A stretch of 64,000 bases of DNA from Candidatus Micrarchaeota archaeon (GTDB taxonomy: Archaea; Micrarchaeota; Micrarchaeia; Norongarragalinales; Norongarragalinaceae): positions 84,125-148,124 of the forward strand of contig JACPGT010000002.1 in NCBI GenBank assembly GCA_016188965.1. The letters run 5' to 3'. Position 1 is the first letter of the stretch; each line of letters begins with the position of its first letter. Of the stretch, positions 9,227 to 62,886 are shown one piece after another. The notes beneath the pieces were generated by a model that worked only from the letters and a program-made list of their open reading frames with translations, ran no database searches and was not told where the DNA came from. The translations under genes were made by a program, and so were the position numbers.

Positions 9227-9482
9227 CGCCGGGACTGAGACTTTCAGCGAAGCGAGCTGACCTGCGGGTCATTCGCAACTTGGGTTCGCGTTCGAACTCA
9301 GAAGGGCTTGCGCCCACAGACTTAACGGCCCGATGACGACCTATTCAGCACAGCGATGGTCTTGCGACCATCGCATGCTCCTGCGGTCCTTCCTTCTAGG
9401 AATCGGGTTTCCAGGTCTGCGCATTGCCGTTCTGCCATCCCGGCGTGAAAAGCAAAACGAATGCCTTCTGGCATTCGCATCT
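9227..9482 (-). ncRNA. candidate structured non-coding RNA (class unresolved)
   Basis: Gene-free gap of about 430 nt. Minus strand has a TTTAAATA box at 9504-9511. Terminal 8-bp pairing CGCCGGGA/UCCCGGCG, nested GACCUG/CAGGUC and CCCGAU/AUCGGG. Two GCAA-capped hairpins. Followed by a U-run at 9218-9226. Confidence 0.3.
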
Positions 9483-10561: not shown

Positions 10562-12577
10562 TTAAAAACGCGTCGGGTTTTGGTTGTTGTGCGTTGGCGA
10601 TTCCGGCCCTTTTGTTGAGCGATACGTCTGCCTCGCCTTGAGTTGCTCTACCAGGCGTTCCGCGACTTTGAGCGTGACTTGGTGTTCGTGCAGCGTGGCT
10701 TCCTGCGGGTTGGCCCCGACGTATGAGCCTTGGCCTTCCGAATAGGGTGTTCCGTGCCCGGCGTCAATCACGAATTTCTTCCCCTGGAGGCTCGCGGCGG
10801 TGGCCGTTTGCGTGCTGAACGTCTGGCAGGTCAGTTTGCCGGCGATTTTCTGGTCGGTGCGGGGTTTGCGGCTGATGCCTTCTTTTTCCGTGTACTTGGA
10901 AAAATCGGTGGTGGCGTCGCTGAGGTACATGTTCAAGACGAGGCCGTTGACGGCGTTGCCGAAGTTCTGCCGGATGGGTACCTCGACGTAATAGAACCCT
11001 GCGTAATTCGGCCGTTCCGAAAGCGCCTGGATGTAGACCGGTGTTGTGCCGGCCGGCAGGTTGCGGTATTGTTCAGGGTATTGCACGCCGGGCTTGTGCA
11101 GGACGGCACGAGCGGCGAAACATCCGCCTTTGTCGTTGCCGTAGCCGGAGAACGCGACGTCGAAGAAAGCGTCTTTGGCGCCGTCTTTCTGGTCGACGTA
11201 GAAATAGACGCACGCTTTGTTGCCGCCGGAAAAATCGGGAAGCGTCTGGAACGATGCGTCTTGGGGGCACGATCCCGGGTTTGACTTGATGGCGACGATG
11301 CGGGTTTTCTGCGTCTGCGTTTCCGCGAACTCCATCGTTTCTTGAGAAGCCGTCTTGCCGGCGAATTCCAGCAACGCGTCTTTGGCGGCTAAGACTCTCG
11401 GAGCATACCCGTTGGCCAGGTACGGCTTGGGGTTGACGGCGCAGGATGCTTCCACGCATCCGATGCGCACGCCGTAATGCAGGTGGACGGCTCCGTTGGC
11501 GCTTCCGGTGCCTCCCATGGTGCCGAGGGTTTGTCCTTGTTTGACGGCTTGGCCGACTTTGAGTGACGGAACGTCTTGCAGGTGACAGAACGTGCCGTAG
11601 ATGGGTTTGCCCATGGTGGCTGAACAGCCCGTGAATTCCATGCTCATCCCGTTGCCGCACGCGCCGCCTTCGTGCGCTCCGAAGACGCTGACGATTTTTC
11701 CGTCAGCCGGCGCGATGATGGTCGGATTTCCCACGATGTCGATTCCATCGTGCGAGTAGCTTCGGCCGTTGTACTGCCTCGGGGTGCCGAACTCGCTGGT
11801 GATTTCGGGGTTTTTCAGTGGCGGGATGAACCGGCACCGCTCTTGGATTTCCGCAGAAGGCAAGAGGGATTCTGACAGCAATCCATACCGCAGTCCGGTG
11901 GGGGTGTCGTCCGTCGACGGCGCGTCCGTCAAGCGGCCGCTTGTTTCGGCGACGGATTCCGCGTTCGTTCCTTCCGTGGATGCGTGCGTCCCATCTGCGT
12001 TGCTTTGCCGGGTGTTCGCATCGGCGCGGGCGTTTTGGACCGGTGGCGTTTTGGGCACGCAGTTCTTGAATGCCACCGCCCTGGCGTCGGTTGATACCTG
12101 GATTTGGCAGGCGGGGTTGACCGCGGCCGGGTACGTTTCATCCAGCATGGTGGTGAGGATCGTCGTGGCGGCGGCCGTGGCATCCGGCGCCGCATACACG
12201 CGCAGGATGTCCCGGTCCAGGAAAATGACGTTGTAGTCTTTTCCGGAAGCGGGGAACGAGAACCGTTCTGACGCCGGGGCGTTGTCTACCGGGTCCGGTA
12301 GCGCGAATGGCATGGGGTTGGCCGATACGCGTTGGAGGTATCCCGTGCCGATGCGGATGTCGATTCCCACTTCTCCTTCGAACGTCTTGTCCTTGATGGC
12401 GCAGTACAGGTAGGATTCCGGCGTCAGCGAGGCGCCGGCGCAGTTGCCGGAAATGGCGGAAATGCCGTGGATTCCCAGCTTGTTCAGGTCGAACAGCGTC
12501 GTGGCGGGTGCGGCCAGGATTGATGGCAATGCGATGACCAGAAAGACCAGCGGGAGTGGACTTCGTGCTGACGCCAT
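10562..12577 (-). CDS. secreted murein hydrolase fragment: signal peptide, M23 peptidase, N-terminal part of amidase_3 (upstream part of a frameshifted gene)
   Basis: MASARSPLPLVFLVIALPSILA signal. M23 HxxxD/HxH motifs (SHDGIDIVG, AVHLHYGV). C-terminal FVIDAGHGTPYSEG begins amidase_3 and then runs into a stop. Start at ATG 12577 because the ORF start is TTG. Confidence 0.8.
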   Translation of the reverse strand: MASARSPLPLVFLVIALPSILAAPATTLFDLNKLGIHGISAISGNCAGASLTPESYLYCAIKDKTFEGEVGIDIRIGTGYLQRVSANPMPFALPDPVDNAPASERFSFPASGKDYNVIFLDRDILRVYAAPDATAAATTILTTMLDETYPAAVNPACQIQVSTDARAVAFKNCVPKTPPVQNARADANTRQSNADGTHASTEGTNAESVAETSGRLTDAPSTDDTPTGLRYGLLSESLLPSAEIQERCRFIPPLKNPEITSEFGTPRQYNGRSYSHDGIDIVGNPTIIAPADGKIVSVFGAHEGGACGNGMSMEFTGCSATMGKPIYGTFCHLQDVPSLKVGQAVKQGQTLGTMGGTGSANGAVHLHYGVRIGCVEASCAVNPKPYLANGYAPRVLAAKDALLEFAGKTASQETMEFAETQTQKTRIVAIKSNPGSCPQDASFQTLPDFSGGNKACVYFYVDQKDGAKDAFFDVAFSGYGNDKGGCFAARAVLHKPGVQYPEQYRNLPAGTTPVYIQALSERPNYAGFYYVEVPIRQNFGNAVNGLVLNMYLSDATTDFSKYTEKEGISRKPRTDQKIAGKLTCQTFSTQTATAASLQGKKFVIDAGHGTPYSEGQGSYVGANPQEATLHEHQVTLKVAERLVEQLKARQTYRSTKGPESPTHNNQNPTRF

Positions 12578-28016: not shown

Positions 28017-28754
28017 TTAGTCTCCTTCGTTCTTGATTTCAACGCGGCCACGGCGCCGGCCCGTGCGGCTGGACGCGATGTGGCCGACTTTCTGGCCCGG
28101 AGGCGCGTTGCGCGACACGGACGAGGACTTGCCGAAACTGCGGCCGCCGTGCGGGTGGTCATAAGCTGACTTGGCCGTGCCACGGACGACGGGCCAGTAC
28201 TTGTTGCGCGACTTCATCGCGTAGAAGCTGTTGCCGGCCTTCTGCAGGGGCTTTTCCAGCCGGCCGCCGCCCGAAGCGACGCCGACGGTGGCCCAGCATT
28301 CCGGGGAAAGGGTGCGCACGCGCTTGGACGACAGGCGCACGCTGACCTGGTTGGTGTCCTCATCGTGGCCCACGATCAGAGAGGACGAGCCGGACGCGCG
28401 AGAGACGCGGCCGCCGTCGCCGGGGCGCAATTCGAGGTTGAAGACGGACACGCCTTCCGGCACTTTTTCCAACGGCATCACGTTACCTGACCTCAAGGCC
28501 GCGTCGGTTCCTACTTGGATCAAGTCGCCGGCTTTCAGGCCTTCGGCGGCCAGGTACGTCATGCGTTTGCCGTTCTCGAGCAGGATGTCAGCCATGACGG
28601 TGGAATGCGCAGGGTCGGTGAGCAACCGCATGACCTGTCCGCGCATGGTGCCGGACACGTGGACGTATTGCGTGGCGTCATAGAAGCGGTGCGACGGTGT
28701 CTTGAACGCCGGTCCGCCCTTGCCTCTGCGCTGCGGGATGAGTCGAGTGCCCAT
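28017..28754 (-). CDS. rpl2: 50S ribosomal protein L2 (uL2)
   Basis: RPGDGGRVSRASGSSS..GTAKSAYDHPHGGR. Confidence 0.96.
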   Translation of the reverse strand: MGTRLIPQRRGKGGPAFKTPSHRFYDATQYVHVSGTMRGQVMRLLTDPAHSTVMADILLENGKRMTYLAAEGLKAGDLIQVGTDAALRSGNVMPLEKVPEGVSVFNLELRPGDGGRVSRASGSSSLIVGHDEDTNQVSVRLSSKRVRTLSPECWATVGVASGGGRLEKPLQKAGNSFYAMKSRNKYWPVVRGTAKSAYDHPHGGRSFGKSSSVSRNAPPGQKVGHIASSRTGRRRGRVEIKNEGD

Positions 28755-28769
28755 TCTAAATGCACCTAA

Positions 28770-28845
28770 GCCCCAGGGGGCACCAAGGTTCCCCCTTGGC
28801 GCTTAGTCCGCCTCGTCCCCCTCCTTGCGGAAGGGTGTTGGGGGT
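28770..28845 (+). repeat. short copy (X1) of the G/C-tract hairpin repeat family X
   Basis: CCCCAGGGGG-N10-CCCCCTTGG hairpin followed by TCCGCCTCGTCCCCCTCCTT. Aligns to the first ~65 nt of X2 (44091-). Sits in the 113-nt L2-L23 spacer. Confidence 0.6.
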
Positions 28846-28867
28846 GTTGTTGAATCGTGTTTTCATT

Positions 28868-29116
28868 CTAAATCACTTTGAGTTTGCCGGCCAGCTCCGT
28901 GGCGGCGCCTTTGCGTGCGAACCGGACGACGGCCTTCTTGTGGCCCCGGATGCTGTGCAGCGTCCGGACGGCCTTGACTTTTTCCTTGTATTCCGTCTCA
29001 AGCTCGGCCTTGATCTGCGCTTTGGTCGCGTTTTCGCGCACCACGAATACCAGCTGGTTGTCGCGTTCGATGCCGGCCACGGCCTTTTCCGTCGTCAGTA
29101 CGTGTTGGATGATCAT
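28868..29116 (-). CDS. rpl23: 50S ribosomal protein L23 (uL23)
   Basis: LTTEKAVAGIERDNQLVFVV, 82 aa. Confidence 0.93.
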   Translation of the reverse strand: MIIQHVLTTEKAVAGIERDNQLVFVVRENATKAQIKAELETEYKEKVKAVRTLHSIRGHKKAVVRFARKGAATELAGKLKVI

Positions 29117-32856: not shown

Positions 32857-32969
32857 GCCCCTGTAGCTCAGCCTGGTACAGACGCGGTCGCCTTTTTCTT
32901 TCCGAAAGAAAAATGCGGCCTGCCGAAAAAGAAACGAAGAAAAAGGAATAAACCAAGAGTAAACGAATT
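32857..32969 (+). repeat. 22-nt duplicate of the tRNA-Thr(GGU) 5' end plus hairpin element Y1
   Basis: 32857-32878 is identical to 32970-32991 (GCCCCTGTAGCTCAGCCTGGTA, and the preceding AATT is also shared). It is followed by GC-rich sequence, TTTTTCTTT-CCG-AAAGAAAAA, GC-rich sequence and an AAAAAGAAAC A-rich tail. Confidence 0.7.
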
Positions 32970-33079
32970 GCCCCTGTAGCTCAGCCTGGTAGAGCGCGTC
33001 CATGGTAACACGCGATGGTCGAAAGACTGCCGCGTGCCCATACAGGACGAGGTCGCGCGTTCAATTCGCGTCGGGGGCT
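32970..33079 (+). tRNA. tRNA-Thr(GGU) with 36-nt canonical (37/38) intron
   Basis: Acceptor GCCCCTG/CGGGGGC. Anticodon stem CGTCC/GGACG. Loop AT-GGT-A then intron 33008-33043 forming a relaxed BHB (ATGG/CCAT central helix, CACGCG/CGCGTG inner helix). T arm GCGCG-TTCAATT-CGCGT. Confidence 0.85.
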
Positions 33080-34319: not shown

Positions 34320-35483
34320 TCAAGCAATCTTCTGCATTGCTTTTTCCCAAGCCGCCGTGATGCTGACGACGTAGTTGCGCGTCTCGCCAAAGCGGTGGTT
34401 GCGGCAGGTGTTGGCGTTTTTGGTTTGAACTTCGCGGTCGTAGGGTCCGGCGTTGTAGGCGGCCAAGGCGCATTCGACGTTGCCGCTGGTCCTCAATTGG
34501 CGGGAGAGATATTCGACGCCGCCGCATATGTTGAAGTACGGGTCGAATACTTTGTCCTGTCCGATGCCCATGCCGGCCGCCGTCCCCGGAGTCATCTGGG
34601 TGTAGCCCTGCGCGTATTTCGATTCGGCGAACTGCCTCCCGCCGCTTTCCTGACCCAAGACCGATCGCAGCAGTGAATACGGAACGTGGTACAATTCGGA
34701 CGCCTTCTTGAAGATGCAGGTCGGATCCGCCGTGCGCCATGAGCGGCCGCGGTAAGTCGCCGTGCCCGTCTGGGGGCAGGCGGATTCAACCTGCTTGACG
34801 CAGGCAGTCACGCCGGCTAGCTGGACTTGCGTTGTCTGGAATTCCGCCCGCGTTCTGACATCGTACGCGCCCGCCGTGGTCACGGGCTTGGGCTGCGTTG
34901 GCGTCACGGTTGCTGGGGCGGTTTTGCAGATGGTTTCGACGTCGCGTTGTGCGATGCCGGCGCGGCGGAGTTCGAAGTAGAGGGAGGGAAATGCGTTGGC
35001 TTCGGATTTTCCGGTTTTGCCGATGGTTTCGCCTTTTTTGACGTCGCTGCCTTCGGTTGGGTTAGGTCCGGTTTGGAGGTAGCCGTATGTTGTTTCGACC
35101 GTCGGGTTTGTCGCGTGTCGGATGGTGACGTATCGTCCGTAACCTAGCAAGTCGGTTCTGCCCGAGGCGATGACTTTGCCTCCGCTTGCGGCCCGTACGT
35201 CTGTTCCTTCGGGTAGGCGGATTTCGACGCCTTGGCGGATGCGTTTTTCGTTGTTGAGGTTTTTGTATTCGGCTCCGTATGCGCCGGTGACCGGTGCGTT
35301 GACGGGGCAGGTGAAGCTGGTGGTGGAGTAGGTGGTGCCGGTGGGTCCGGGTTTGATTTGTTCTAGTGTGAATCCGGAGAATAGGCAGATGTGGTTGGAC
35401 GGGCAGGATGGAAGCGTGAGGGCGAAGATGAGGCTGGAGTAAAGCAGGACGATTAGGATTGCAATCCCCGCAATGCGCCGCAT
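34320..35483 (-). CDS. secreted murein hydrolase: degenerate M23/LytM-like module plus SLT lytic transglycosylase
   Basis: Signal/TM MRRIAGIAILIVLLYSSLIFA. LytM-like core GVEIRLPEGTDVRAA..GYGRYVTIRH..LYFELRR lacks HxH. C-terminal SLT motifs VLGQESGG, YTQMTPGTA, LAAYNAG. ATG 35483. Confidence 0.8.
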   Translation of the reverse strand: MRRIAGIAILIVLLYSSLIFALTLPSCPSNHICLFSGFTLEQIKPGPTGTTYSTTSFTCPVNAPVTGAYGAEYKNLNNEKRIRQGVEIRLPEGTDVRAASGGKVIASGRTDLLGYGRYVTIRHATNPTVETTYGYLQTGPNPTEGSDVKKGETIGKTGKSEANAFPSLYFELRRAGIAQRDVETICKTAPATVTPTQPKPVTTAGAYDVRTRAEFQTTQVQLAGVTACVKQVESACPQTGTATYRGRSWRTADPTCIFKKASELYHVPYSLLRSVLGQESGGRQFAESKYAQGYTQMTPGTAAGMGIGQDKVFDPYFNICGGVEYLSRQLRTSGNVECALAAYNAGPYDREVQTKNANTCRNHRFGETRNYVVSITAAWEKAMQKIA

Positions 35484-35538: not shown

Positions 35539-36597
35539 TCATGAGATGTACTTCGTGGGAAGCAAAAAGGCGCCGTAGTCGCCACCGGTGCGCAGTTCAA
35601 AATGCAGGTGGGCTCCCCGCGAGCTTCCACGGTCCGGATCGCTTGACGCTCCCCCGGTCAGACCCACTGCCTGCGATGTACTGACACGCTGGCCTTTGAT
35701 GACGTCGCGGCGTTTGAGATGGCCGTACCGTGCGAAGACCGGTTTTCCGTTCATGCGGCAGTCGCACTGGATCACGACTTCGCCGCCGTAACCGCCGACG
35801 TCCTCCGCCCAACTGGTGTGCACGACTCCATCGCATGCCGCCGTTGCCACGGTTCCGGAAGCCACTCCGACATCGTCCCCTTTATGGTACCGGTAGCCTC
35901 CTGAACCCGTGGGCCGCAACTCCCCGGCGTGACTTCCCACCAAGGCCGGATAGTTGCCCGGCACCGGAGACTTGAAGTGGCAAGCGCCGGTCTGGGGCAG
36001 CAATGCAGCGGCCGGCGGAGCCGTGGCCTTGGTTTTGCAGATGTTTTCGACGTCGCGCTGCGCGATGCCGCCGCGGCGCAACTCAAAATAAAACGAAGGA
36101 AACGCGTTGGCTTCGGATTTTCCGGTTTTGCCGATGACTTCGCCTTTTTTGACATCGGTGCCTTCGACTGGGTTGGGGCCGGTCTGAAGATACCCATACG
36201 TCGTTTCGACCGTCGGGTTCGTCGCGTGGCGGATGGTGACGTACCGGCCGTAGCCGAGTAGGTCGGTTCTGCCGGAGGCGATGATTTTTCCGCTGGCCGC
36301 TGCTCGTACGTCTGTGCCTTCTGGTAGGCGGATTTCGACGCCTTGCCGCACCCGCTTCTCGCCATTGAGATTGACATATTCGCCGCCGTATGCGCCGGTG
36401 ACGGGTGCGTTGACGGGGCAGGTGAAGCTGGTGGTGGAGTAGGGGGTGCCGGTGGGTGTGGGTTTGATGGGTTCGAGGGTGATTCCGGAGAAGAGGCAGA
36501 CGTGGTTGCCCGGACACGACGGCAAGGTTAATGCCGATGCGGCGGCTGCCGAAAAAACCAAAGCGAATACAGCCGCCAGTACGGCGCGGTTTTCCAT
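35539..36597 (-). CDS. secreted murein hydrolase: degenerate M23/LytM-like module plus catalytic M23 peptidase
   Basis: The N-terminal ~190 aa are nearly collinear with 34320-35483. The C-terminal module has YHKGDDVGV (HxxxD) and GAHLHFELR (HxH). Confidence 0.8.
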   Translation of the reverse strand: MENRAVLAAVFALVFSAAAASALTLPSCPGNHVCLFSGITLEPIKPTPTGTPYSTTSFTCPVNAPVTGAYGGEYVNLNGEKRVRQGVEIRLPEGTDVRAAASGKIIASGRTDLLGYGRYVTIRHATNPTVETTYGYLQTGPNPVEGTDVKKGEVIGKTGKSEANAFPSFYFELRRGGIAQRDVENICKTKATAPPAAALLPQTGACHFKSPVPGNYPALVGSHAGELRPTGSGGYRYHKGDDVGVASGTVATAACDGVVHTSWAEDVGGYGGEVVIQCDCRMNGKPVFARYGHLKRRDVIKGQRVSTSQAVGLTGGASSDPDRGSSRGAHLHFELRTGGDYGAFLLPTKYIS

Positions 36598-37465: not shown

Positions 37466-37603
37466 GCCTCGGTAGCTCAGACGAGCCCATCTTTTCTTTG
37501 CGAAAGAAAAGCTAGGCGCCCCAAAAGAAACAACAAGAAAAGCCGGATAAAGGAAAAACGAAGCTTCAAAAACAGCGCACAACCAAAAAAGCAATGCAAA
37601 ATT
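37466..37603 (+). repeat. 15-nt duplicate of the tRNA-Thr(CGU) 5' end plus hairpin element Y2
   Basis: 37466-37480 is identical to 37604-37618 (GCCTCGGTAGCTCAG). It is followed by GAGCCCAT-CTTTTCTTT-GCG-AAAGAAAAG-CTAGGCGCCCC-AAAAGAAAC.., which shares 14-nt and 28-nt identical blocks with the tRNA-Leu(UAA) intron. Confidence 0.7.
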
Positions 37604-43117: not shown

Positions 43118-43519
43118 TCATTCCGTTTTAATGACTCGTGTATCCGCGATTCCTTTGAAGTCGGAATCCCTCGTCACCAACGTCGCGTTGAGTTTTCGTG
43201 CCGTGGCCAGAGACAGCGCGTCAACGGTGGAAAACTGTGGGTGGCGTAACTTAAGCTGGAGCGCATGGAACACGATTCCCTCGTCCAATCCAATTAGCTT
43301 GCTGCGGTTCTTGATTTGGCCGCCGACGTATTCCACTTCTTTGGGTTTTCGTTGCTGGTAGTATCGCAGCACTTCGTACAGCGTGAGCAGGGAGCAGTAC
43401 CGCTCCGCGTTATTTTCAAGGATCCTTTCCGCTTGGCTCGCGCCGGGATGGTCGTCGAAGAGTGCGATCCATACTCCGCTGTCAATGAAAATCCTTTTCG
43501 AATCGCCCATGGAATTCAT
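43118..43519 (-). CDS. vapC: PIN-domain ribonuclease (VapC toxin)
   Basis: IFIDSGVWIALFDD.., LVTRDSDF. Overlaps the upstream AbrB-type gene. Confidence 0.75.
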   Translation of the reverse strand: MNSMGDSKRIFIDSGVWIALFDDHPGASQAERILENNAERYCSLLTLYEVLRYYQQRKPKEVEYVGGQIKNRSKLIGLDEGIVFHALQLKLRHPQFSTVDALSLATARKLNATLVTRDSDFKGIADTRVIKTE

Positions 43520-43703
43520 TCCAGTCCTGCTCGGTTGCGCCGGTCTTGAATGCGCCGCGCAGCTTCTTCAGCGGCAGCACGGGTACCAGTACGAAGCGCG
43601 CCGGCTCGTATTCGATGATTTCGAATTTGGTGGCTCCCGTCTTTTCCCGGACTTCCTTTGGGATTACGCACCTACCTTTTTCATCCAGTTCCACGTACGC
43701 CAT
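43482..43703 (-). CDS. vapB: AbrB/SpoVT-type antitoxin (VapB)
   Basis: VELDEKGRCVIPKEVREKTG swapped-hairpin motif, 73 aa, overlaps the PIN gene. Confidence 0.75.
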   Translation of the reverse strand: MAYVELDEKGRCVIPKEVREKTGATKFEIIEYEPARFVLVPVLPLKKLRGAFKTGATEQDWNEFHGRFEKDFH

Positions 43704-43803: not shown

Positions 43804-43986
43804 GGAGGAGTGTCCTGAGTCTGGCCAAAAGGGCAGGACTTAAGAGCCGCCCATCTTTTCTTTTTGATAAAAAGAAAAGCTAGGCGCCCCAAAAGAAAAA
43901 CCGTCTAGCGCGCGAATCATACAGCTTCAGCGGCTAAGTCATCCTGTGGCTTTGTGCCTTCGGGGGTTCAAATCCCCCCTCCTCCA
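43804..43986 (+). tRNA. tRNA-Leu(UAA) with 96-nt canonical (37/38) intron carrying hairpin element Y3
   Basis: Acceptor GGAGGAG/CTCCTCC+A. Anticodon stem CAGGA/TCCTG, loop CT-TAA-G. Intron 43845-43940 forms a strict hBHBh' (central CTTA/TAAG, bulges AGA and TCA, inner GCCGC/GCGGC). Long variable arm. T arm GGGGG-TTCAAAT-CCCCC. Mature length 87 nt. Confidence 0.88.
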
Positions 43987-44066
43987 CTTTTGATTCGTAA
44001 GACTAAACTCGGGGGTTCGGGGTAACGTAGGACTATAGGGGGCGGAGCCCCCTGTGGTCCCGCGGC

Positions 44067-44089
44067 GGGTTCAAATCCCCCCTCCTCCA
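44067..44089 (+). repeat. 23-nt duplicate of the tRNA-Leu(UAA) 3' end
   Basis: GGGTTCAAATCCCCCCTCCTCCA at 44067-44089 is identical to 43964-43986. No matching 5' acceptor strand lies between the copies. Confidence 0.75.
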
Positions 44090-44090
44090 T

Positions 44091-44336
44091 GGTCGCCCCG
44101 GGGGAAACGCTGTTTCCCCCTGGCGCACCCTCCGCCTCGCCCCCTTCCTTTACGATTCTCAAATACTAGTTTGAGGGAGGGGCTGGAGGACATCACAATT
44201 TCCTGCCGGAAATTGTGTGGGCCCCCAATTCCGTAAGAATTGGGAGCACCTGAAACTGAAGGGGGAAACGTGGTTACCGACGGTCTTGCTTGACCGTCGG
44301 TTTCTTCCGCGCCCCCTGCGGTTCCGGTTGCAAATC
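44091..44336 (+). repeat. full-length copy (X2) of the G/C-tract multi-hairpin repeat family X
   Basis: Modules: GGTCGCCCCGGG, hairpin GGGGGAAAC/GTTTCCCCC, CCTCCGCCTCGCCCCC, GAGGGAGGGGC, hairpin CACAATTTCC/GGAAATTGTG, hairpin CCCAATTC/GAATTGGG, hairpin ACCGACGGTC/GACCGTCGGT, end CCCCCTGCGGTTCCGGTTGCAAATC. Collinear with X3. Confidence 0.65.
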
Positions 44337-44350
44337 CCTACTCCGTTGAA

Positions 44351-53789: not shown

Positions 53790-54853
53790 TTGGGTCTGCC
53801 TCCCGTGATGGCGTTCGGCGCTCCAGTAGCCGGGTCGTTCGCCAGCGCTTCCCATCCGCAGCATTGCAGGACGGGATTCTGCAGTTTTTCGCTCAACGAC
53901 GTGACGTTGGTGTTGATGCGGGGGTCGCACGTGGCCGGGTTGAGGGCGACGCCCAGCCGCTCGCCGCAAGACCGCGCGTACAGGTAACTGACGCTGCCGC
54001 TTTTCTTGGGCCGGCACTTGGCCATGACCAGGTAGTAGTCCCGCCATTGCAGGTCCGACGGTTTGAGTACCAGGTTTGCCTCGGCTTGCCAGCGCGAGAG
54101 CATGGTGACCGGGTCGGCCAGGATGATGGATTTGTCGTACACCGCGCGTGCGTAACCTTCGCAACCCGAGCCGGACTGGACGTGGACCACCAGCGATCCG
54201 CTGCCTTGGCCGTCCGTTGCGGACGAGGGGATGTTGGTGATGTTGATGGAGTACCGTTCCAGTTGGCTCTTGCCGACGGAAAGCGATGATTCCAGCGTGT
54301 AGACCTTGCGCTCGTCCTCGACCGGCGAGTTGATGACGTTCGTCAGCGTGGCGGCGATGTTGCGGGCCATAGACTGTGCTTGCGTCCGGCAGATGGATTC
54401 CTTCTGCGCGTCGGAAAAGCTCACCATGATGGCCGCCAAGGTGATGATGAAAAAGACCATAGCGAATTTGGTGAGCATGAACAAGGCGATTTGTCCCCGT
54501 AATCCCCGGGGGGCACATGGTTCCCCCCTGGAGATTCCGCACAAGTCCGTGGGGGACTTGTGGGGCCACACAAATTCCCGTGAGGAATTTGTGCTGACTC
54601 CTCCTCGCCCCCCTCCTCGGGAAGTGGTGGAGGCCCAGGGCGGGCCAGGGAGAAACCGAAGGTGTCTCCCGGGGCGACCGCGTGATTTCGTGAGCATGAA
54701 CCAGGCGATTGGTGCCCGGGTTGTCTGGCTTTGCGGGGGTTCTCGGCGAGGGCTTCGGGCCGCGTTGGGCGTTGCCTCGTCGTCGGATGCCATGACAGCA
54801 GAAACGCAGGCCGTTGTTTTAACCGTTTGGCCTTCCACGTGGGTTTGTGGCAC
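53780..54853 (-). CDS. type IV pilin-like protein whose 5' region contains repeat X3 (start codon uncertain)
   Basis: RGQ/IALFMLTKFAMVFFIITLAAIMVSF at 54491-54499 and downstream. Upstream in frame lies the Gly/Arg/Pro-rich translation of X3 and a duplicated IAWFMLTK. Confidence 0.5.
   Translation of the reverse strand: MPQTHVEGQTVKTTACVSAVMASDDEATPNAARSPRREPPQSQTTRAPIAWFMLTKSRGRPGRHLRFLPGPPWASTTSRGGGRGGVSTNSSREFVWPHKSPTDLCGISRGEPCAPRGLRGQIALFMLTKFAMVFFIITLAAIMVSFSDAQKESICRTQAQSMARNIAATLTNVINSPVEDERKVYTLESSLSVGKSQLERYSINITNIPSSATDGQGSGSLVVHVQSGSGCEGYARAVYDKSIILADPVTMLSRWQAEANLVLKPSDLQWRDYYLVMAKCRPKKSGSVSYLYARSCGERLGVALNPATCDPRINTNVTSLSEKLQNPVLQCCGWEALANDPATGAPNAITGGRPKCV
54494..54683 (-). repeat. 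copy X3 of repeat family X, inverted relative to X2, flanked by an imperfect 29-bp direct repeat
   Basis: Collinear with X2 when read on the minus strand: GGTCGCCCCGGG.., CACAAATTCC/GGAATTTGTG, ACAAGTCC/GGACTTGT, CCAGGGGGG../CCCCCCGGGG. Direct repeats 54465-54493 and 54684-54712 match at 25/29 positions. Confidence 0.65.
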
Positions 54854-54863
54854 TCCTTCCTTT

Positions 54864-55577
54864 TCAGCGGTTGGCCGGCACGGCGCACATCTTGATCTGC
54901 GTGTGTCCCCTGAGGTCGCCTACGGAAAGTATCTTGTTGAACGTGATGAGGTATTGCCGGGTGTCCGAGCTTCCCAGCGTCACCCAATTCGAGCGGGCTG
55001 CGATGTCCGGCGAGATGCCCAAATCGGCTTCGCACGCGTGGCTGCCGTCCGAACACGGCGTGACCCGAAGCTCGGTGCAGCCCTGCTGCGTCCCTTGGTC
55101 TTCGATGCTCACCCGTTCGGCCGGCAGTTCGATGCACGTGATGGCGTCGCTGACGCGCTCGAAGCCGTCCTTGGTCTTGGCCACGGGTACGATCTGCCAA
55201 CATCCCGCGTAATGCCCCGGACAACGCTTGCACAGCTCCGGATTAGTGAATTTGACGAATTGGATGCTTTCAATCGTCTGGTCGCCGCAGCGCGGCATGG
55301 AAAACCGCACCGTCTTCTTGCTTCCGGCCGAGCCGAGGCCCACGTCCAGAATGGCTTCCTGCAGTTGCTGCGTCTGGGTCTTGAGCGTGGCCAGGCAACG
55401 GCCCGTCTCGGTCTGGCCCATGACGTAGAACGCCAGGCCCATGCTGGTCACGAGGATGATGATGGCCACGACCAATTCAATCGGGGCGTCCATTTGTCCC
55501 CGAACCGCGGGGGGGACGCTTCCCCTCCCCAGTTTGAGGTTCTTCCGGCCCCTCCCCTCATTTTTGTGCGTGAACAT
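54864..55577 (-). CDS. type IV pilin-like protein with partial repeat X4 in its pre-sequence
   Basis: MFTHKNEGRGRKNLKLGRGSVPPAVRGQ/MDAPIELVVAIIILVTSMGLAF. ATG 55577. Confidence 0.55.
   Translation of the reverse strand: MFTHKNEGRGRKNLKLGRGSVPPAVRGQMDAPIELVVAIIILVTSMGLAFYVMGQTETGRCLATLKTQTQQLQEAILDVGLGSAGSKKTVRFSMPRCGDQTIESIQFVKFTNPELCKRCPGHYAGCWQIVPVAKTKDGFERVSDAITCIELPAERVSIEDQGTQQGCTELRVTPCSDGSHACEADLGISPDIAARSNWVTLGSSDTRQYLITFNKILSVGDLRGHTQIKMCAVPANR
55497..55560 (-). repeat. truncated copy X4 of repeat family X
   Basis: Minus strand GAGGGGAGGGGCCGGAAGAAC..GGGGAAGCGTCCCCCCCGCGGTTCGGGGAC matches the purine-rich module and the 3' end of X3 and X2. Confidence 0.55.
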
Positions 55578-59022: not shown

Positions 59023-62000
59023 TTATTCGGCCGCGACGGTCGCCTGTTTCTGCCGCACCAGGTCGGCGACGAGTTCGGAGTCGACCCAGGCCTTCCAGTC
59101 GGCCATCAGCTTGGGGTAATCCAAGTTGCCGGTCTCCTCGCGCTGCTTTTCCGTCAAGATCAGGTAATGCATGTGGGCCCGCACGGCGTACTCGGCTTCC
59201 AAGAGCCGGGGGATGCCGTACTGGTTCTTCTGGTCCACCAAGTATTGTTTGGTCTGGCCGCGGGCGAGGATCTCGTTCCACACTTCGTCCGCATCCAGGC
59301 CGCGCATGCGCTGGACTTTCTTGAGCCACTCGCTTTTGCCTATGATGTCGTCCTTGAAGATCTCCAAATCATCCTTGTTGGCGTCGAACGTCATCCAGTT
59401 GACGAAACCGTGCTCTTTGCCGGGGTCGGACTCCCAGTCCTTGAGCACTTCCGTCACCTCGATGAGGCGGCGGTGGCGCTTGAGCGAGCCTTTGAACCGG
59501 ATGGGTGCGGCCACCACGCAGAAGTCCGTGGCCTTGAAACTCGTCGTCGGCACGCCCAAGTCGTTCACCACACGGTCCCAGATGGAATATGCGGATTCGC
59601 CGTGGATGGTGCCCATGACGACGTTGCCCACGGCACCGACACGCATGGCCTCGTACAATGCCTTGGCTTCACCCGAACGCACTTCGCCCACGATCAGCAC
59701 CGAGTCTCCCAGACGCAAGGCCGTACGGAGGGCGTCTTCGGCCGACACTTCCGACTCCGTGCCGCCGCCCAAAGGAGGCCGCGTCTTCATGCGCTGGATG
59801 GAGAGGCCCAATTTTTTCATCTGCGGAACGGGAAGCTCCTGCGTGTCTTCTTGCACGAGTACCCTCAAGTTTTGAGGCAGTTCCAGCATCATGGCCTGCA
59901 GAAGCGATGTGTTGTGGGCGATGATGCCGTTGGCCACGAAGGAGTGCGTCCCGTCAACAGTGAGGTCGTAGACGTATGGTCCGGATGGCGCGACTTTTTC
60001 GATTTGGACGACTCGGTCCCAGTACAGTTCGGAGTGCGCCAGGTTGTGCATCTGGCGGATTTTTTCATCATCCGGCTTTTTTTCGAGGGCATCGTGGGCG
60101 ATTTGTTGCAATTTGTTCCGGCCGATTTCGTGCTGATCAAGGCTCGTTTTTCCGAAGCCGTATTCCTTTTTCGTGTGTTCCAGCAAGGCCCACGCGTTCG
60201 GAATGACGTCGACGTTGGAGTTGAATTTCCGTCCCTTCAGCATGTCCTCTAAGCGTTTTTGCTTGTCGGGGTGGCCGAATCCGATGCGTTGGGCAAACCG
60301 CAGGCAGTTATCCCCCCGGATGAAGCCACGGTAATACTCGGTCCCGTTGACTTGTTTGGGTTTCCGGATGCTTTGGATTCCGAAGCGGAGCAGCGCGTAC
60401 TGCATTTGCTCGGCCATTTTAGGGCTTGCGGTGCAGAACTCGATTTCCGTCTTGTCTTTCCGGACGCTGGAGTCGCAATCGAAATATCCCTTGATGAATT
60501 CGGCCAAGCCGGCGTCGGATGCGGACAAGATTTCGTTCGGCATTTCTTGGAACGGCGCTTTTTTCCCACTGGGCAGGCCGAAACGGCCCCGCACCATCCG
60601 GCTGACGGCCCGCGAGGACACTTGGTACATGGGCGAGCGATTCTTGGGATGGCGGATTTTACCTTTTGCGCCGAAGACTTGTTCCGACAATTTCTGGAAG
60701 TCGGCCAGCAGTGTCGGGTGGGTGTTGGTGAACGTCAGCTCCACGTCATCGACGTGACCGTCGCCGTACAACAGCCCCAGAAGCCGGGCGTATTCCATCG
60801 TCATCCGGTCCGTCAGGATTCCTGCGTTCATCACGTGGTTCGAGTTGTTGGATTTGACGTCATTCAGTTGGCTGACGTATTGGCCAATCTCACTGCCGGT
60901 GTATTGCGCGATTTTTTCCATTTCTTCGAACGAAACAGCATTGCGGACGCCGTTCTTGAGGTTGGCCGCGGTCCTGTAATTCATCCCCATGGCGGCGGCT
61001 GCAATGTTCAGCGGCGTTTTTTGCTGTATTCGAGTCAATCTCTCCCTGGCAAGGGGTGCCAGTTCGGGGTATTTGAGTCCGAAAAGGTGAGACTGTTCCC
61101 GCATCCGGTCCAAATCAAGGCCTTTGGTTTGGCCCGAGTGCGTCGGAATCGTCCTGGGCGTGGCGACGAATCCTCCGGTCTTAAGTTCATCCGCTCGGAT
61201 TTGCGTCACGAATCCTTCTTTGACCGTGAAGAAGGGGTGTTCCGGCGTCGTGGTGATTTGCTTTCCGGAGGCCAGCATGATTTTGAACATTTCGGCGGGT
61301 GCGCTGCGACGCCAAACCTTCTCAACCGGCGCAGCTCGGACTTTCAAATCCGACGTCATGGTCAAAATATCCAATCCGTTGCATTCGGCGTAGCATCCGT
61401 CTTCGATTAACGTCGGGTTGTGGAGGTTTTCTTCCACAAGCTGTTCGATCCGTTTCAGGCTTCCGTCGGCCATCTGGATAAGCGTATCGCCTTCCAGGCA
61501 TTTTCCGGCGCCACGACTGCCCACGATGAGCATGGATGCCTGGGCGTCGACGAAGAAGGACAGCATGCCGGCGGCAAAGCTGCCGAATGCCTTGCCATCG
61601 ACGAACTGCGCCAGGGTCCACGGCGTCTGCTTGTGCAACCGTAAGGCAAACGCGATGCCGTCGAGCGCAAGGGGTTTTCCGATGACGGCGATGCGCGTCT
61701 GCAAGTCCTCCAGGTCGAAGTCCAGGATGGGGTGCGCCTCGTCAAACGGCCGGCCGGAGAGGGCGCGGAATCGTGAGACGATGCTTCTGGCTTCTTCGTT
61801 GGAAAAGATGACGTTCGTCTGGCATTGGCCGTACTTGCCGTGCACCAGGTAGATGGGTTTGTCGCCCAAGGGCGAGTCGATGTATACGTCGGTCACGCGG
61901 CGGTCGGACAGAAGCACTTCCATGATGCCGTAGCCGATAGTGTAGCGCGCCACGATGGACGCCAAGTCTTCTTTTTCTTCGACGGAGAGCTTGATGTTGT

Positions 62001-62886
62001 TCTTCAGCGCCAAGTCGGCGATGGTCGCCACATAGACCTTGCGGAAGTACTTGCGGGCTTGCGTGATGTCCAAGAATTGCACGCTTTCCGGCCGGTGCTG
62101 CGCCACCACTTCCTTGGTCTTTTCCAGCAGGAAGTATTTTTCCGGCGGCAGGCTGTACTCCGGAGGATTGATGAAGTAAAGGTACTGCACCTGGTCGGGG
62201 TGGCGGTAGATGTAGACCTTGCTGCCGCCCACGTCGTACTGGTCGACCAGTTCGAGCTGCTCGGTCGCGGAAAAGAAGATGCGCGAGCCGATGAAGGACG
62301 GCTTGATCGAGCTTTCGAAGAACGCGTGGTACGCGGTGCGGCCTTCCGGGATGCTGCCCAGCTGGGACAAATAGTCTTTCATGGCCTGGATGAGCTTCAT
62401 CTCTTCCATCTTCTGCCGCATGTAGCGCAGCGTGCCCAGGTAAATCTGCACGTCTTCGGCATTGGGCCCGGCGGCGGCTGCCTGCGCGGCGACGGTTTTC
62501 ATCTCCTGCACCAGCGTCAGGTAGGCCTTGAACGGGTCGGACTTGATTTGGGCCATGATGCGCAACACGGCGTCATGTCGCGGGCCCAAGGTCTTGGATT
62601 CCGTCGTCTTGCCCAGGTGCGACGGGCTCCAGACGGCGTCGGCTTCCAGGTTGTTGACCAAGTCGGCGACTTCGCGCAGCCAGCCGGTCTGCTTCTCATC
62701 GTAGATGCGTTCGTAGTACTCGCTGAGCACCACTTCGTCCGCGTCGGCTTCGCGCAGCTTCTCGACGACGTCTTGGAATGCCTGGCCGTACTGGGCGATG
62801 TCGGGGCCCCAGGCCATGCCGCGGTAGTCGATGACCAGTCGCTTTTTGCCGCCGTCGCTTTTCACGACGGCCTGTCCGGGAGCCAT
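59023..62886 (-). CDS. GspE/VirB11/FlaI-family secretion or pilus ATPase interrupted by an intein
   Basis: Walker A GSRGAGK|..|TSLLQ. After the intein come VLVQEDTQEL (Walker B/Asp box), LRLGDSVLIVGEVRSGEA and GTIHGESAYS (His box). The extein totals 757 aa. Confidence 0.85.
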   Translation of the reverse strand: MAPGQAVVKSDGGKKRLVIDYRGMAWGPDIAQYGQAFQDVVEKLREADADEVVLSEYYERIYDEKQTGWLREVADLVNNLEADAVWSPSHLGKTTESKTLGPRHDAVLRIMAQIKSDPFKAYLTLVQEMKTVAAQAAAAGPNAEDVQIYLGTLRYMRQKMEEMKLIQAMKDYLSQLGSIPEGRTAYHAFFESSIKPSFIGSRIFFSATEQLELVDQYDVGGSKVYIYRHPDQVQYLYFINPPEYSLPPEKYFLLEKTKEVVAQHRPESVQFLDITQARKYFRKVYVATIADLALKNNIKLSVEEKEDLASIVARYTIGYGIMEVLLSDRRVTDVYIDSPLGDKPIYLVHGKYGQCQTNVIFSNEEARSIVSRFRALSGRPFDEAHPILDFDLEDLQTRIAVIGKPLALDGIAFALRLHKQTPWTLAQFVDGKAFGSFAAGMLSFFVDAQASMLIVGSRGAGKCLEGDTLIQMADGSLKRIEQLVEENLHNPTLIEDGCYAECNGLDILTMTSDLKVRAAPVEKVWRRSAPAEMFKIMLASGKQITTTPEHPFFTVKEGFVTQIRADELKTGGFVATPRTIPTHSGQTKGLDLDRMREQSHLFGLKYPELAPLARERLTRIQQKTPLNIAAAAMGMNYRTAANLKNGVRNAVSFEEMEKIAQYTGSEIGQYVSQLNDVKSNNSNHVMNAGILTDRMTMEYARLLGLLYGDGHVDDVELTFTNTHPTLLADFQKLSEQVFGAKGKIRHPKNRSPMYQVSSRAVSRMVRGRFGLPSGKKAPFQEMPNEILSASDAGLAEFIKGYFDCDSSVRKDKTEIEFCTASPKMAEQMQYALLRFGIQSIRKPKQVNGTEYYRGFIRGDNCLRFAQRIGFGHPDKQKRLEDMLKGRKFNSNVDVIPNAWALLEHTKKEYGFGKTSLDQHEIGRNKLQQIAHDALEKKPDDEKIRQMHNLAHSELYWDRVVQIEKVAPSGPYVYDLTVDGTHSFVANGIIAHNTSLLQAMMLELPQNLRVLVQEDTQELPVPQMKKLGLSIQRMKTRPPLGGGTESEVSAEDALRTALRLGDSVLIVGEVRSGEAKALYEAMRVGAVGNVVMGTIHGESAYSIWDRVVNDLGVPTTSFKATDFCVVAAPIRFKGSLKRHRRLIEVTEVLKDWESDPGKEHGFVNWMTFDANKDDLEIFKDDIIGKSEWLKKVQRMRGLDADEVWNEILARGQTKQYLVDQKNQYGIPRLLEAEYAVRAHMHYLILTEKQREETGNLDYPKLMADWKAWVDSELVADLVRQKQATVAAE
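59911..61500 (-). mobile_element. 530-aa intein with LAGLIDADG homing-endonuclease domain
   Basis: Residues 463-992: block A CLEGDTLIQMADGS, block B TTTPEHPF, LAGLIDADG motifs LLGLLYGDGHV and LAEFIKGYFDCDSS, blocks F/G YVYDLTVDGTHSFVANGIIAHN, then Thr+1. Confidence 0.85.

Follow-up and report, generated by a model that had tools for sequence, protein, structure and literature searches.

Repeat family X, a set of hairpin-rich sequences in a Candidatus Micrarchaeota (DPANN) archaeon, is probably composite, made up of non-coding DNA insertions nested in one another and spread through one Micrarchaeota clade, with no single RNA gene behind it. On the best reading, the X elements form a new family of non-autonomous, MITE/REP-like DNA, and our literature search returned no description of X-type elements. 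We compared the window (the whole 64-kb stretch of DNA analysed here) with about 330 kb of related DNA from nine related genomes, whose loci are labelled L121-L142; L2 and L23, by contrast with these labels, are ribosomal proteins. Every layer of the composite (referred to as H1, U and DHE) occurs in filled and empty versions at orthologous sites among these relatives. Copies are also flanked by direct repeats of their target, be it a tRNA 3' end, a pilin leader or the L23 stop/L2 start, and these repeats span 10 to about 37 nt (10, 12, 14-15, 21 and 34 nt being among the lengths observed). The X elements themselves measure 102-245 nt and are overlapped by spurious ORFs only.

The initial annotation described X as one multi-hairpin element with two long copies, X2 and X3, and two shorter ones. 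The family is real, as are both long copies, all of the hairpins, a compensated base pair and the two short copies in the places assigned to them. The single unit, however, has to be given up; X is a patchwork of nested insertions, with hairpins A and B inserted separately. X2 and X3 are indeed homologous and collinear, and their similarity is weak but real (64% identity over 186 nt, E = 2e-9 with sensitive blastn). A sensitive scoring scheme is required to see this, as blastn-short returned only 12-mers and no link between the two. Both copies start with GGTCGCCCCGGG; the pattern GGTCGCCCCGGG-N8-24-CCCTGGC has two matches with zero expected, and the same is true of the hairpin A pattern (2 matches, 0 expected). 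X2 is identical across two independent assemblies (SRR12113422 and SRR12113385), and intragenomic X copies are only 64-75% identical to one another.

DPANN archaea have very small genomes, which are usually regarded as streamlined. If our reading is right, one DPANN clade tolerates layered selfish hairpin DNA in its ribosomal protein operon, tRNA flanks and pilin signal peptide, where insertions would find "safe harbours", stretches that are later removed by the cell: introns, the leaders and trailers of tRNAs, and a protein leader that is cleaved off. The X family would then provide markers of strain-level evolution in Micrarchaeota. Annotation pipelines should also expect X elements: ORFs are inflated, with pilin A called with a leader of ~100 aa, and the elements adjoin intron-bearing tRNAs, which ARAGORN missed here.

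Layers of the X2 locus

X2 adjoins its target, a tRNA-Leu(UAA) gene (43804..43986, plus strand) with a 96-nt bulge-helix-bulge intron (43845-43940). ARAGORN did not call this gene, with a weak tRNA-like/tmRNA match over 43804-43989; orthologues are found in L131, L136 and L142. The intron is framed by an anticodon stem (CAGGA/TCCTG), a central helix (CTTA/TAAG), two 3-nt bulges (AGA and TCA) and an outer helix (GCCGC/GCGGC). Since this junction is a canonical bulge-helix-bulge, the 96-nt insert is an intron, and we rejected the idea that it was a transposon insertion.

Directly after the tRNA lies unit U (43987..44089, plus strand), which runs TTTTGATTCG...GGGGGTTCGGGG and continues into a partial tRNA-Leu copy, with a 23-nt exact repeat of the tRNA 3' end. 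The tRNA-Leu part consists of an anticodon-arm-like stretch, a small hairpin (GGGGGCGGAGCCCCC), the T arm and the acceptor 3' strand, and it terminates exactly at the discriminator base. We considered whether U could be the 3' half of a functional split tRNA, but dropped this because the parts of U corresponding to an anticodon loop and a T arm have degenerated, and a 5' acceptor strand that would match it is missing. Unit U is also found behind tRNA-Leu in L134, in L142 and, as a tandem pair, in L131.

X2 itself begins with module H1 (44091..44129, plus strand), a 17-bp G/C-tract hairpin with the base GGTCGCC...GGCGCACC, scoring 67.4 bits with covariance model R1. Together with its C-rich tail, this H1 is identical at 57/61 positions to a copy in L134 that is sited after a different tRNA-Leu (CAG), and the first 60 nt of X2 are 100% identical to L136. 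The middle of X2 (44130..44190, plus strand) opens with a block rich in C and T, continues with what is left of the tRNA trailer (ACGATTCTCAAATACTAG) and a purine-rich block (GAGGGAGGGGCTGGAGGA), and is collinear both with L136 (95/98 identity, first 100 nt) and with unit U of L131. It is followed by a DHE (44191..44245, plus strand), made up of CAT, hairpin A (44194-44217), the linker TGGGCC, hairpin B (44224-44244) and a final A. The right part (44246..44333, plus strand) contains the G-tract hairpin H3 (GGGGG at 44261-44265, CCCCC at 44312-44316), a hairpin nested in its loop (44276-44301) and the terminus GCGGTTCCGGTTGCAA. Perfect hairpins in X2 are located at 44100-44120 (9 bp), 44194-44217 (10 bp), 44224-44244 (8 bp) and 44276-44301 (10 bp).

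The extent first given to X2, 44091-44336, needs a small correction: the element reaches to about 44333, and 44334..44345 (plus strand) is a flanking direct repeat, in which the tRNA-Leu end recurs in degenerate form (ATCCCTACTCCG). In L136, this repeat is intact, with 14 nt matching perfectly (TCCCCCCTCCTCCA). L136 is the closest relative, and its X2 orthologue has no hairpins A and B (the junction reads GGAGGA followed by GCGTG); H3 is present there without the nested hairpin. In the L133 orthologue, the nested hairpin is present, and the right terminus, ...CCCCCTTTGGGCGACC, is the GGTCGCC end in inverted form.

The DHE (double-hairpin element) is a ~55-nt element composed of hairpins A plus B, which is nested within other layers in either orientation. 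Its stems have a conserved CAA...TTG base, the linker is TGG(G)CC, and the hairpins are 19-26 nt long and without GTAG. Stems with the same CAA...TTG base and TGGGCC linker recur at unrelated sites. We counted eight DHEs in about 250 kb, and three adjacent double hairpins were observed in the window vs 0.10 expected. The presence of the DHE varies at five orthologous sites. Any target duplication is at most 1-3 nt, and all of the resolved CAT-type insertions (3/3, a small sample) lie just after GGA, while those of a second subtype are sited after CCTTT. Hairpin A bears out the compensated pair claimed for it, with CACAATTTCC/GGAAATTGTG in X2 vs CACAAATTCC/GGAATTTGTG in X3, differing at one pair. 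The stem of hairpin B in X3 is the same stem as that of hairpin A in a relative's copy.

Insertions in the ribosomal operon, pilin leaders and tRNA flanks

H1 is a ~50-nt module that starts with GGTCGCC and forms a long G/C-tract hairpin with GGTCGCC at its base. It occurs solo in X1, and at both ends, inverted, in X3 and in the L133 orthologue of X2. Four H1 modules were counted across the 64 kb of the window; five related genomes, covered over about 150 kb, yielded none. After tRNA-Leu, H1 is found in the window, L136 and L134, and is missing in L131 and L142.

X1 (28762..28863, plus strand) consists of an H1 module and a C-rich/purine hairpin; it separates the L23 stop from the L2 start and is antisense to the ribosomal operon. 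One of the short copies in the initial annotation (28770-28845) falls here, and its match to R1, the covariance model of the 5' hairpin, stands at 69.8 bits. The X1 insertion measures 102 nt, and its target is duplicated perfectly over 10 bp (CATTCTAAAT, at 28752-28761 and 28864-28873). The empty site (...GTGATTTAGAATGGGCAC...) is seen in L121, where ribosomal protein L2 is 95% identical, and the L23/L2 spacer is 1-10 nt long in L123, L126 and L129 and 0-10 nt in L139-L141. Relatives also have A-rich inserts in the spacers of their ribosomal operons, which proved to be unrelated to X and without duplication. X1 and the L137 copy lie away from tRNA genes, and the solo H1 insertions (X1, L137 and L138) have right ends that are unconserved.

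X3 (54500..54684, minus strand) comprises a left H1 (54632-54682), a purine block, a DHE (about 54537-54598) and an inverted right H1 (54496-54545 on the plus strand), with perfect hairpins at 54540-54562 (9 bp) and 54569-54593 (10 bp). Model R1 matches X3 on both strands (58.4 bits on the minus strand, 58.1 bits on the plus strand), and hence the ends of X3 are roughly 50-nt inverted terminal modules. Terminal-repeat alignment gives X3 a score of 15 vs 8.2 +/- 1.5 for shuffles; support for terminal inverted repeats is weaker in X2 (12 vs 7.6 +/- 1.4 for shuffles), and the L134 X copy has none.

X3 sits between two 34-nt direct repeats (repeat family D9, 88% identity). The downstream one (54466..54499, minus strand; RGQIALFMLTKF) is the functional start of mature pilin A, and the upstream one (54685..54718, minus strand; RAPIAWFMLTKS) is a decayed copy. 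Pilin A of L134 has no insertion, its mature-start codons coming directly after the start codon (MRAQIALWMLTKF). The same duplicated pilin leader, with a GGTCGCC junction, is found in L133 and L142, with only about 23 nt between the repeats in L142. An open frame of 98 codons runs from the ATG at 54793 through the upstream repeat and X3 to RGQ, and X3 appears to be translated in frame as part of the pilin leader. All of the upstream-ATG-to-RGQ stretches are open (5/5), with a chance of 0.07-0.27 per case, each ATG being chosen as the in-frame one.

X4 (55499..55560, minus strand) is a partial X element (purine block, G-tract hairpin and right end GCGGTTC) located directly before the RGQ codons of pilin B. 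It corresponds to the other short copy (55497-55560), which matches the 3' half of the L136 X element (51/59 identical, at positions 79-138) with a score of 37 vs 9 +/- 1.5 for shuffles. The L131 orthologue of pilin B carries an extra 60-nt inverted DHE within the hairpin, with the frame kept, and L134 has a plain MARGQ leader. We also considered a shared T-loop-like target motif, TTCAAAT (the pilin RGQ codons, CGGGGACAAAT, resembling GGGTTCAAAT), and dropped it because the L137 and L138 targets are without the motif. GGTTGCA is the X element's own right end and no feature of the target.

Besides tRNA-Leu, unit U follows tRNA-Thr(GGU), in L123 and L129 only; this site is empty in the window, L126 and L139. 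The repeats at the tRNA-Leu and tRNA-Thr ends are 14-15 nt long, and each target tRNA has a 15-mer repeat of its own, the tRNA-Thr version differing from the tRNA-Leu version. Target duplication therefore fits better than a pre-existing attachment site on the element. Upstream of tRNA-Thr lies a Y module, related to the X modules, which equals the tRNA exons in conservation and includes a T·G pair that is itself conserved; the Y cassette at this position is about 100% conserved in five genomes. Given their age and conservation, the old pieces (U after tRNA-Leu, the pilin-leader duplication and the Y modules) may be serving the host now, or may be held by gene conversion.

Possible movement and alternative origins

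The absence of a transposase from the window, as first reported, is upheld, with no transposase/integrase domain among 30 window proteins. More broadly, neither a transposase, an integrase nor a casposase was found in these 30 proteins or annotated in the related loci, where the one gene annotated as anything like a recombinase is a truncated resolvase, which lies at the L126 edge. The 30 window proteins contain no Y1 transposase domain, and Cas1 and PolB domains were absent from the window proteins tested and not seen in the available loci. Neither the window nor the related loci contain an IS200/IS605 copy, and no autonomous element with X-type ends turned up there, the related loci amounting to about 330 kb. 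IS200/IS605 elements are present in >65% of Micrarchaeota genomes (PMC13343696), and the literature searched held no report of casposons in Micrarchaeota. Phage and plasmid BLAST and viral-contig scans gave no match to X. A genome-collection scan with GGTCGCCCCGGG-N8-24-CCCTGGC returned >118 chance matches in high-GC bacteria, with no hairpin A among the matches listed.

As mobile elements, the H1, U and X layers would be moved by a trans-acting enzyme encoded elsewhere in the genome, which would recognise the GGTCGCC hairpin ends and integrate them at staggered cuts, so that direct repeats measuring between 10 and about 34 nt are left. The length and variability of the target duplications suggest that an integration enzyme is at work. 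Given its minimal duplication and its position after GGA, the DHE may instead move as a folded single strand, like IS200/IS605 and REP elements. Copies of all layers would survive only where the host removes or ignores them, that is, in tRNA leaders and trailers, a tRNA intron, intercistronic spacers and a pilin leader cut by the prepilin peptidase.

Several observations count against the mobile-element reading. The spread of repeat lengths, from 10 to ~37 nt, is given by no single known transposase family. No enzyme was found in the 30 window proteins or the related loci, the copy number is low, the copies are diverged, and the solo H1 insertions have unconserved right ends. The old, conserved pieces named above, which may by now be of use to the host, also weigh on this side.

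A doubtful alternative is that the tRNA-linked parts (U, the 3'-end repeats and perhaps H1) are scars of tyrosine-integrase viruses or plasmids, or of casposons, which lost their bulk by deletion, like solo terminal repeats. tRNA-Leu 3' ends are targets of casposons and integrase elements in Methanosarcina (PMC4779613), and such scars would suit the partial tRNA copies that stop at the discriminator base, the tandem arrays after tRNA-Leu and the repeat lengths (14-15 nt beside tRNA 3' ends, about 34 nt for the pilin leader). X1 is difficult to accommodate, however, as it is 102 nt long with a perfect 10-bp duplication in an essential ribosomal operon, where a large element is unlikely. The tRNA-Thr 15-mer is also unlike the tRNA-Leu one, genes for an integrase, Cas1 or PolB are not seen in the available loci, and scars leave the nested DHE polymorphisms unexplained.

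More doubtful again is a specific form of mobility, in which the GGTCGCC-ended modules (H1, X, U and Y) are miniature elements mobilised by an integrase with unusually long staggered cuts, either casposase/Cas1-like or of an unknown type. It would produce duplications of ~14-15 and ~32-37 nt and target exact tRNA ends and the first codons of secreted proteins, and some copies, such as Y, would have been co-opted as tRNA expression or processing signals. If true, this would be the first long-staggered-cut integrase system in DPANN archaea.

The possibility of a functional RNA ranks below both. The initial annotation observed that structure is kept while sequence drifts, and this is correct: hairpin B has 4/8 pairs, and the 5' hairpin (H1) 7/17 pairs, altered on both sides. 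In hairpin B, 100% of cells are paired, although this is partly built in, because the DHE hairpins were chosen as perfect hairpins. We counted covariation for hairpin B and H1 only, since the MAFFT register was inconsistent for full-length X and for hairpin A of the DHE. Pair changes in these two hairpins always affect both sides and never one; they are full Watson-Crick swaps, with no G·U intermediates among the paired cells. Folding z-scores are -7.7 (plus strand) and -6.9 (minus strand) for X2 and -4.0 and -3.1 for X3, and the X4 segment alone has no excess folding energy (z about 0). The modules are found in both orientations relative to host transcription, and their strands fold about equally.

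These data had first been taken to indicate either a functional RNA or DNA hairpins recognised by a protein. DNA hairpins of a mobile element fit them, whereas a functional RNA is unsupported and, in our view, unlikely. Such an RNA would be a tRNA-linked small RNA or a cis-regulatory pilin leader, and the compensation would stem from selection on the RNA fold. Strong folding and compensated stems are what it would lead one to expect, and H1 is strongly conserved in sequence between distant genomes. X3 and X4 are sense-oriented in pilin 5' regions, the Y module by tRNA-Thr is as conserved as the tRNA exons and has its T·G pair, and X2 directly follows a tRNA with which it is probably co-transcribed, as no long T run precedes H1. 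On the other hand, G·U pairs are missing from the paired cells of H1 and hairpin B, both strands fold equally, X1 is antisense to its operon, and H1 occurs in both orientations within X3. The copies also lie in mutually unrelated genomic contexts and are missing at orthologous sites in close relatives, and X4 alone shows no folding excess. Finally, the Rfam search proposed as a check on X matched no family; at the gathering score Rfam 15 returned nothing but tRNA-Thr, and permissive thresholds gave only sub-threshold matches on X.

Very improbable is a purely local origin without any mobile element, in which slipped replication or template switching acted on the G5/C5 hairpin of the T arm and on similar sequences. 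In its favour, the T arm of tRNA-Leu (GGGGG TTCAAAT CCCCC) forms a G5/C5 hairpin comparable to H1 and H3, flanking-repeat length varies as slippage predicts, and the L142 pilin-leader repeats are only about 23 nt apart. Against it, loci with nothing else in common, some of them in distant genomes, share near-identical H1 modules (57/61 for the window vs L134), and the DHE base and linker are common to unrelated sites; local slippage is unable to bring in one sequence time after time.

Comparison with known systems

If it is non-autonomous mobile DNA, X invites comparison with MITEs, which are likewise small (100-250 nt) and non-coding, make target duplications, vary in presence among relatives and nest in one another. 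X3 and the L133 copy also share with MITEs the inverted terminal modules. However, MITEs have one fixed, short duplication length, whereas that of X ranges from 10 to about 37 nt. In X, moreover, the terminal repeat is itself a 17-bp hairpin, the copies are few and diverged, and no insertion sequence sharing its ends is known as a parent.

The DHE, with its two hairpins of conserved stem base and variable upper stem, recalls the REP/BIME/REPIN-RAYT system and the PATEs derived from IS200/IS605: short hairpins and compensated changes are common to them, and, going by the few insertions resolved, so may be insertion adjacent to a short motif with no clear target duplication. RAYTs have been described in bacteria. 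Unlike REPs, the DHE has no GTAG-type tetranucleotide, and there are only 8 DHEs in about 250 kb, against the many extragenic copies of REPs. Its hairpins abut rather than standing at the ends of a longer element, as in REPs and PATEs, and no linked RAYT/TnpA gene was seen. The H1/U/X layer is different again, as it carries duplications, and HUH transposition makes none.

Casposons of Methanosarcina and Aciduliprofundum integrate at tRNA 3' ends, including that of tRNA-Leu, where they duplicate 14 bp or 35 nt, insert in tandem and also occur as solo terminal repeats (PMC4779613). The X elements are partly similar, in their inverted ends, their tandem arrays sharing a duplicated target and their repeats of 14-15 and about 34 nt. 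Yet they are about 100 times smaller than casposons and non-coding, and they also have duplications of 10, 12 and 21 nt. Integrase attachment remnants would be expected to have an identical core shared by element and tRNA, whereas the X repeats are target-specific, and no integrase was found.

Rickettsia palindromic elements (RPEs) are palindromic selfish elements that are tolerated in frame inside protein-coding genes. X3, its L133 counterpart and the DHE in the L131 pilin B leader all keep the frame and may be comparable to RPEs in this. The X insertions, however, lie in a cleaved leader peptide and not in the mature protein, and they are unrelated to RPEs in both host lineage and sequence.

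X2, X3 and the double-hairpin element

The features that the initial annotation listed for repeat family X are all present in X2 (44091-44336, plus strand, after tRNA-Leu(UAA)) and X3 (54494-54683, minus strand, in the pilin A leader). Their homology also holds: a sensitive search aligned the two at 64% identity over 186 nt (E = 2e-9), with an overall similarity low enough that a short-word BLAST missed it. The 5' motif pattern and the hairpin A pattern each match X2 and X3 only, with no matches expected by chance. Perfect hairpins with a stem of at least 8 bp occur 20 times in the 64-kb window, six of them within the 435 nt of X2 and X3. Against dinucleotide shuffles, folding energies gave z = -7.7 for X2 and -4.0 for X3 (-6.9 and -3.1 for the opposite strands). 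As X2 is identical in contigs from two sequencing runs, independently assembled, it is not an assembly artefact. Directly upstream of tRNA-Leu lies a toxin-antitoxin-like pair (43118-43703, minus strand; translations read by eye), an AbrB/VapB-like ORF with a PIN/VapC-like ORF.

X had been described as one unit. Instead it is a nested, modular composite whose layers were inserted separately, flanked by target duplications that the initial annotation overlooked. Ribosomal protein L2 assigns the window, part of a 392-kb contig, to a Candidatus Micrarchaeota archaeon. We compared the window with orthologous loci of nine relatives (~330 kb in total), with L2 identities to the window from 95% to 72%. 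In the closest relative (L136), the X after tRNA-Leu(UAA) is identical to X2 at 95 of 98 positions across the first 100 nt, and lacks hairpins A and B as well as the hairpin nested in the last G-tract hairpin. At tRNA-Thr(GGU), the unit in L129 has no double hairpin, while that in L123 has one at the equivalent position. The double hairpin is a separate element (DHE) of ~55 nt: hairpin, TGG(G)CC linker, hairpin.

Eight DHEs were found within ~250 kb, three of these in the window (vs 0.10 adjacent double hairpins expected). Five orthologous sites carry a DHE in some genomes and none in others. X2 has one in the window but not in L136, and the unit after tRNA-Thr(GGU) has one in L123 but not in L129. 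X4, the partial X of the pilin B leader, contains one in L131 but none in the window. The other two sites are Y modules, T-rich-hairpin modules that carry a tRNA 5' fragment: the module at tRNA-Thr(CGU) is filled in L129 and empty in the window, and that at tRNA-Thr(GGU) is filled in L123 and empty in L126, L129, L139 and the window. DHEs are seen in both orientations. Junctions leave at most 1-3 ambiguous nt, and all three resolved insertions lie directly after GGA. The hairpin B stem of X3 (CACAAGTCC/GGACTTGTG) is the hairpin A stem of the L123 copy, and "A" and "B" are therefore two instances of one hairpin type. A further DHE (GCAATTGC... and CGCAAAGC..., linker TGGGCCC) lies at 3022-3081 (plus strand) inside an inverted Y-type T-rich hairpin, with near-identical arrangements in L129 and L131. 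Two perfect hairpins also occupy an intergenic stretch at 9340-9480 (plus strand): GCGATGGTC TTGC GACCATCGC (9353-9374) and CGAATGCC TTCT GGCATTCG (9458-9477). The first is of a CGAYGGTC/GACCRTCG type; hairpins of this type are nested in X2 and L133 too, and in the intron of tRNA-Thr(GGU).

H1 and U modules and their insertion sites

Beside the DHE, X consists of two parts. H1 is a long hairpin with the base GGTCGCC...GGCGCACC. Searching ~300 kb of Micrarchaeota sequence with its covariance model gave eight strong matches (58-70 bits): X1 (28762-28863, between L23 and L2), X2, the two ends of X3 (in opposite orientation), and single copies in L134, L136, L137 and L138. U begins with native tRNA trailer (TTTTGATTCG) and ends with a partial copy of a tRNA 3' portion, its last nucleotide being the discriminator base.

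The insertion sites can be seen directly. In L121 (L2 95% identical), the L23 stop and L2 start form an empty site, GTGATTTAGAATGGGC. At the same site the window carries X1 as 102 extra nt with a perfect 10-bp flanking duplication, which keeps both the L23 stop and the L2 start codons; this spacer is at most 10 nt in seven relatives. X3 has H1 modules in inverted orientation at its two ends, and 34-nt repeats (88% identical) adjoin it directly on either side. The repeats are the opening codons of mature pilin A, which in L134 come straight after the start codon (MRAQ...), with no insertion. Repeats are ~12 nt at the L137 copy of H1 and ~21 nt at the L138 copy.

That the tRNA-linked units are scars of integrase elements is a partial alternative; the repeat at tRNA 3' ends consists of the final 14-15 nt of the tRNA, and tRNA-Leu and tRNA-Thr have different repeats, which points to target duplication rather than to an attachment site borne by the element. 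Copy number of X is low, and copies inside one genome have diverged. H1 with its C-rich tail is identical at 57 of 61 positions between the window and L134, despite only 72% L2 identity, implying either strong constraint or recent horizontal spread.

Spacers of the ribosomal operon also hold A-rich inserts of 100-340 nt in some relatives (L123 11132-11322, 13151-13400, 15124-15417, 17161-17501 and 19964-20266, and spacers of L129), which are missing in L121 and L126. These are unrelated to X, and target duplication is not visible.

Pilin leaders and tRNA genes

All copies sit where the host discards or ignores sequence: tRNA trailers (X2, U), an intercistronic spacer (X1) and pilin leaders (X3; X4 at 55499-55560, minus strand). 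The related Y hairpins sit in tRNA 5' regions and one tRNA intron. Among the proteins encoded in the window, which is archaeal, are pilins whose class III signal peptides have RGQ and RAQ sites, an intein-split secretion ATPase and a TadC-like membrane protein. A TATA-like box lies 22-23 nt before the pilin A ATG, an arrangement conserved between the window and L131, which suggests that the mRNA may be leaderless. From this ATG the frame is open for 98 codons, through the upstream repeat, then X3, as far as the RGQ cleavage site. In L133 the counterpart is open as well, and so are both pilin B leaders, including that of L131 with its 60-nt DHE; the chance of an open frame is 0.07-0.27 per leader, with ATGs picked as the in-frame ones. 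From these frames we infer that X3- and X4-type insertions would be translated, then cleaved off together with the signal peptide. The window, L133 and L142 share the pilin A leader duplication and its GGTCGCC junction, and the two repeat copies of each genome have derived states in common, suggesting repeated insertion at one site or gene conversion. L142 has only GGTCGCCACTCAAAAAAGATT (~23 nt) between its ~34-nt repeats, and its pilin A precursor (12250-12400, plus strand) has a cleavage region tandemly duplicated in frame (RGQIALWMLTKS, SGRHSKKI, RAQIALWMLTKF).

The ATPase (59023-62886, minus strand; 1287 aa, T2SSE domain) is of the type IV secretion/pilus kind, and its intein carries a LAGLIDADG homing endonuclease. 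At 753-759 aa, the L131 and L134 orthologues are shorter and hence lack the intein. Elsewhere, a 300-nt direct repeat (34920-35219 and 36031-36330, 84% identity) lies inside two adjacent Peptidase_M23 genes, which are probably paralogues.

The tRNA-Leu(UAA) gene (43804-43986, plus strand), unreported by ARAGORN, has a canonical 96-nt bulge-helix-bulge intron at position 37/38 (43845-43940). This intron contains a T-rich hairpin and GGCGCCCC AAAAGAAA, as found upstream of tRNA-Thr(CGU), where a Y-type module with a 15-nt tRNA 5' fragment lies at 37466-37603 (plus strand). The latter module recurs in the most distant relative (L2 72% identical; L141 2925-3010, minus strand), with an inverted H1-type module just upstream. 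In another Y module (32857-32968, plus strand), a 22-nt copy of the tRNA-Thr(GGU) 5' end is followed by CAGRCGC-GGTCGCC, a T-rich hairpin, GCGGCC and an A-rich tract. The complete, intron-bearing tRNA-Thr(GGU) (32970-33078) follows immediately downstream, as also in L126, L139, L129 and L123. The module is ~100% conserved across the five genomes, while its flanks and the tRNA intron are not. It has the look of a functional element, perhaps a promoter/terminator or a processing cassette.

DNA hairpins and known mobile systems

Structure is indeed kept while sequence drifts, as originally proposed. Hairpin B pairs in every alignment cell, a rate partly built in as DHE hairpins were picked for being perfect, and four of its eight pairs changed on both sides; the common CAA...TTG base, linker and size of the DHE were not selection criteria. 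Its covariation score was 0.571 (vs 0.154 in shuffles). In H1, 89.9% of cells are paired, seven of 17 pairs changed on both sides, and the score was 0.286 (vs 0.104). None of 500 shuffles scored as high in either case.

The initial annotation left two readings, a functional RNA or DNA hairpins of a mobile element, and the data fit the second better. Neither H1 nor hairpin B has one-sided pair changes, and therefore no G·U intermediates. Orientation is mixed: X1 is antisense to its operon, X3 has H1 both ways, and in L141 the copy lies in the opposite orientation to its tRNA. Rfam gave no match for X, permissive thresholds included. These points, with both strands folding about equally, argue against selection at the RNA level. 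Together with the insertion differences, they favour palindromic DNA of a mobile element.

Among 30 window proteins there was no transposase, integrase or Cas1. The annotations of the related loci list none either, and their sole recombinase-like entry is a truncated resolvase gene at the L126 edge. In its behaviour the DHE resembles single-strand elements that depend on hairpins, for example REP/RAYT or derivatives of IS200/IS605; IS200/IS605 elements are reported in >65% of Micrarchaeota genomes (PMC13343696). The H1/U/X layer acts like a small inverted-repeat transposon, except that its duplications are long and variable (10 to ~37 nt). Among the families compared, casposons are closest in target choice and repeat length, with tRNA-Leu 3'-end integration, 14-bp or 35-nt duplications, tandem arrays and solo terminal repeats (PMC4779613). 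However, the 10-, 12- and 21-nt repeats at H1 insertions do not match, and our literature search found nothing that ties casposons to Micrarchaeota. The libraries and literature searched hold no earlier description of the X family, which is best filed as new MITE/REP-like elements in DPANN archaea, with a putative partner enzyme.
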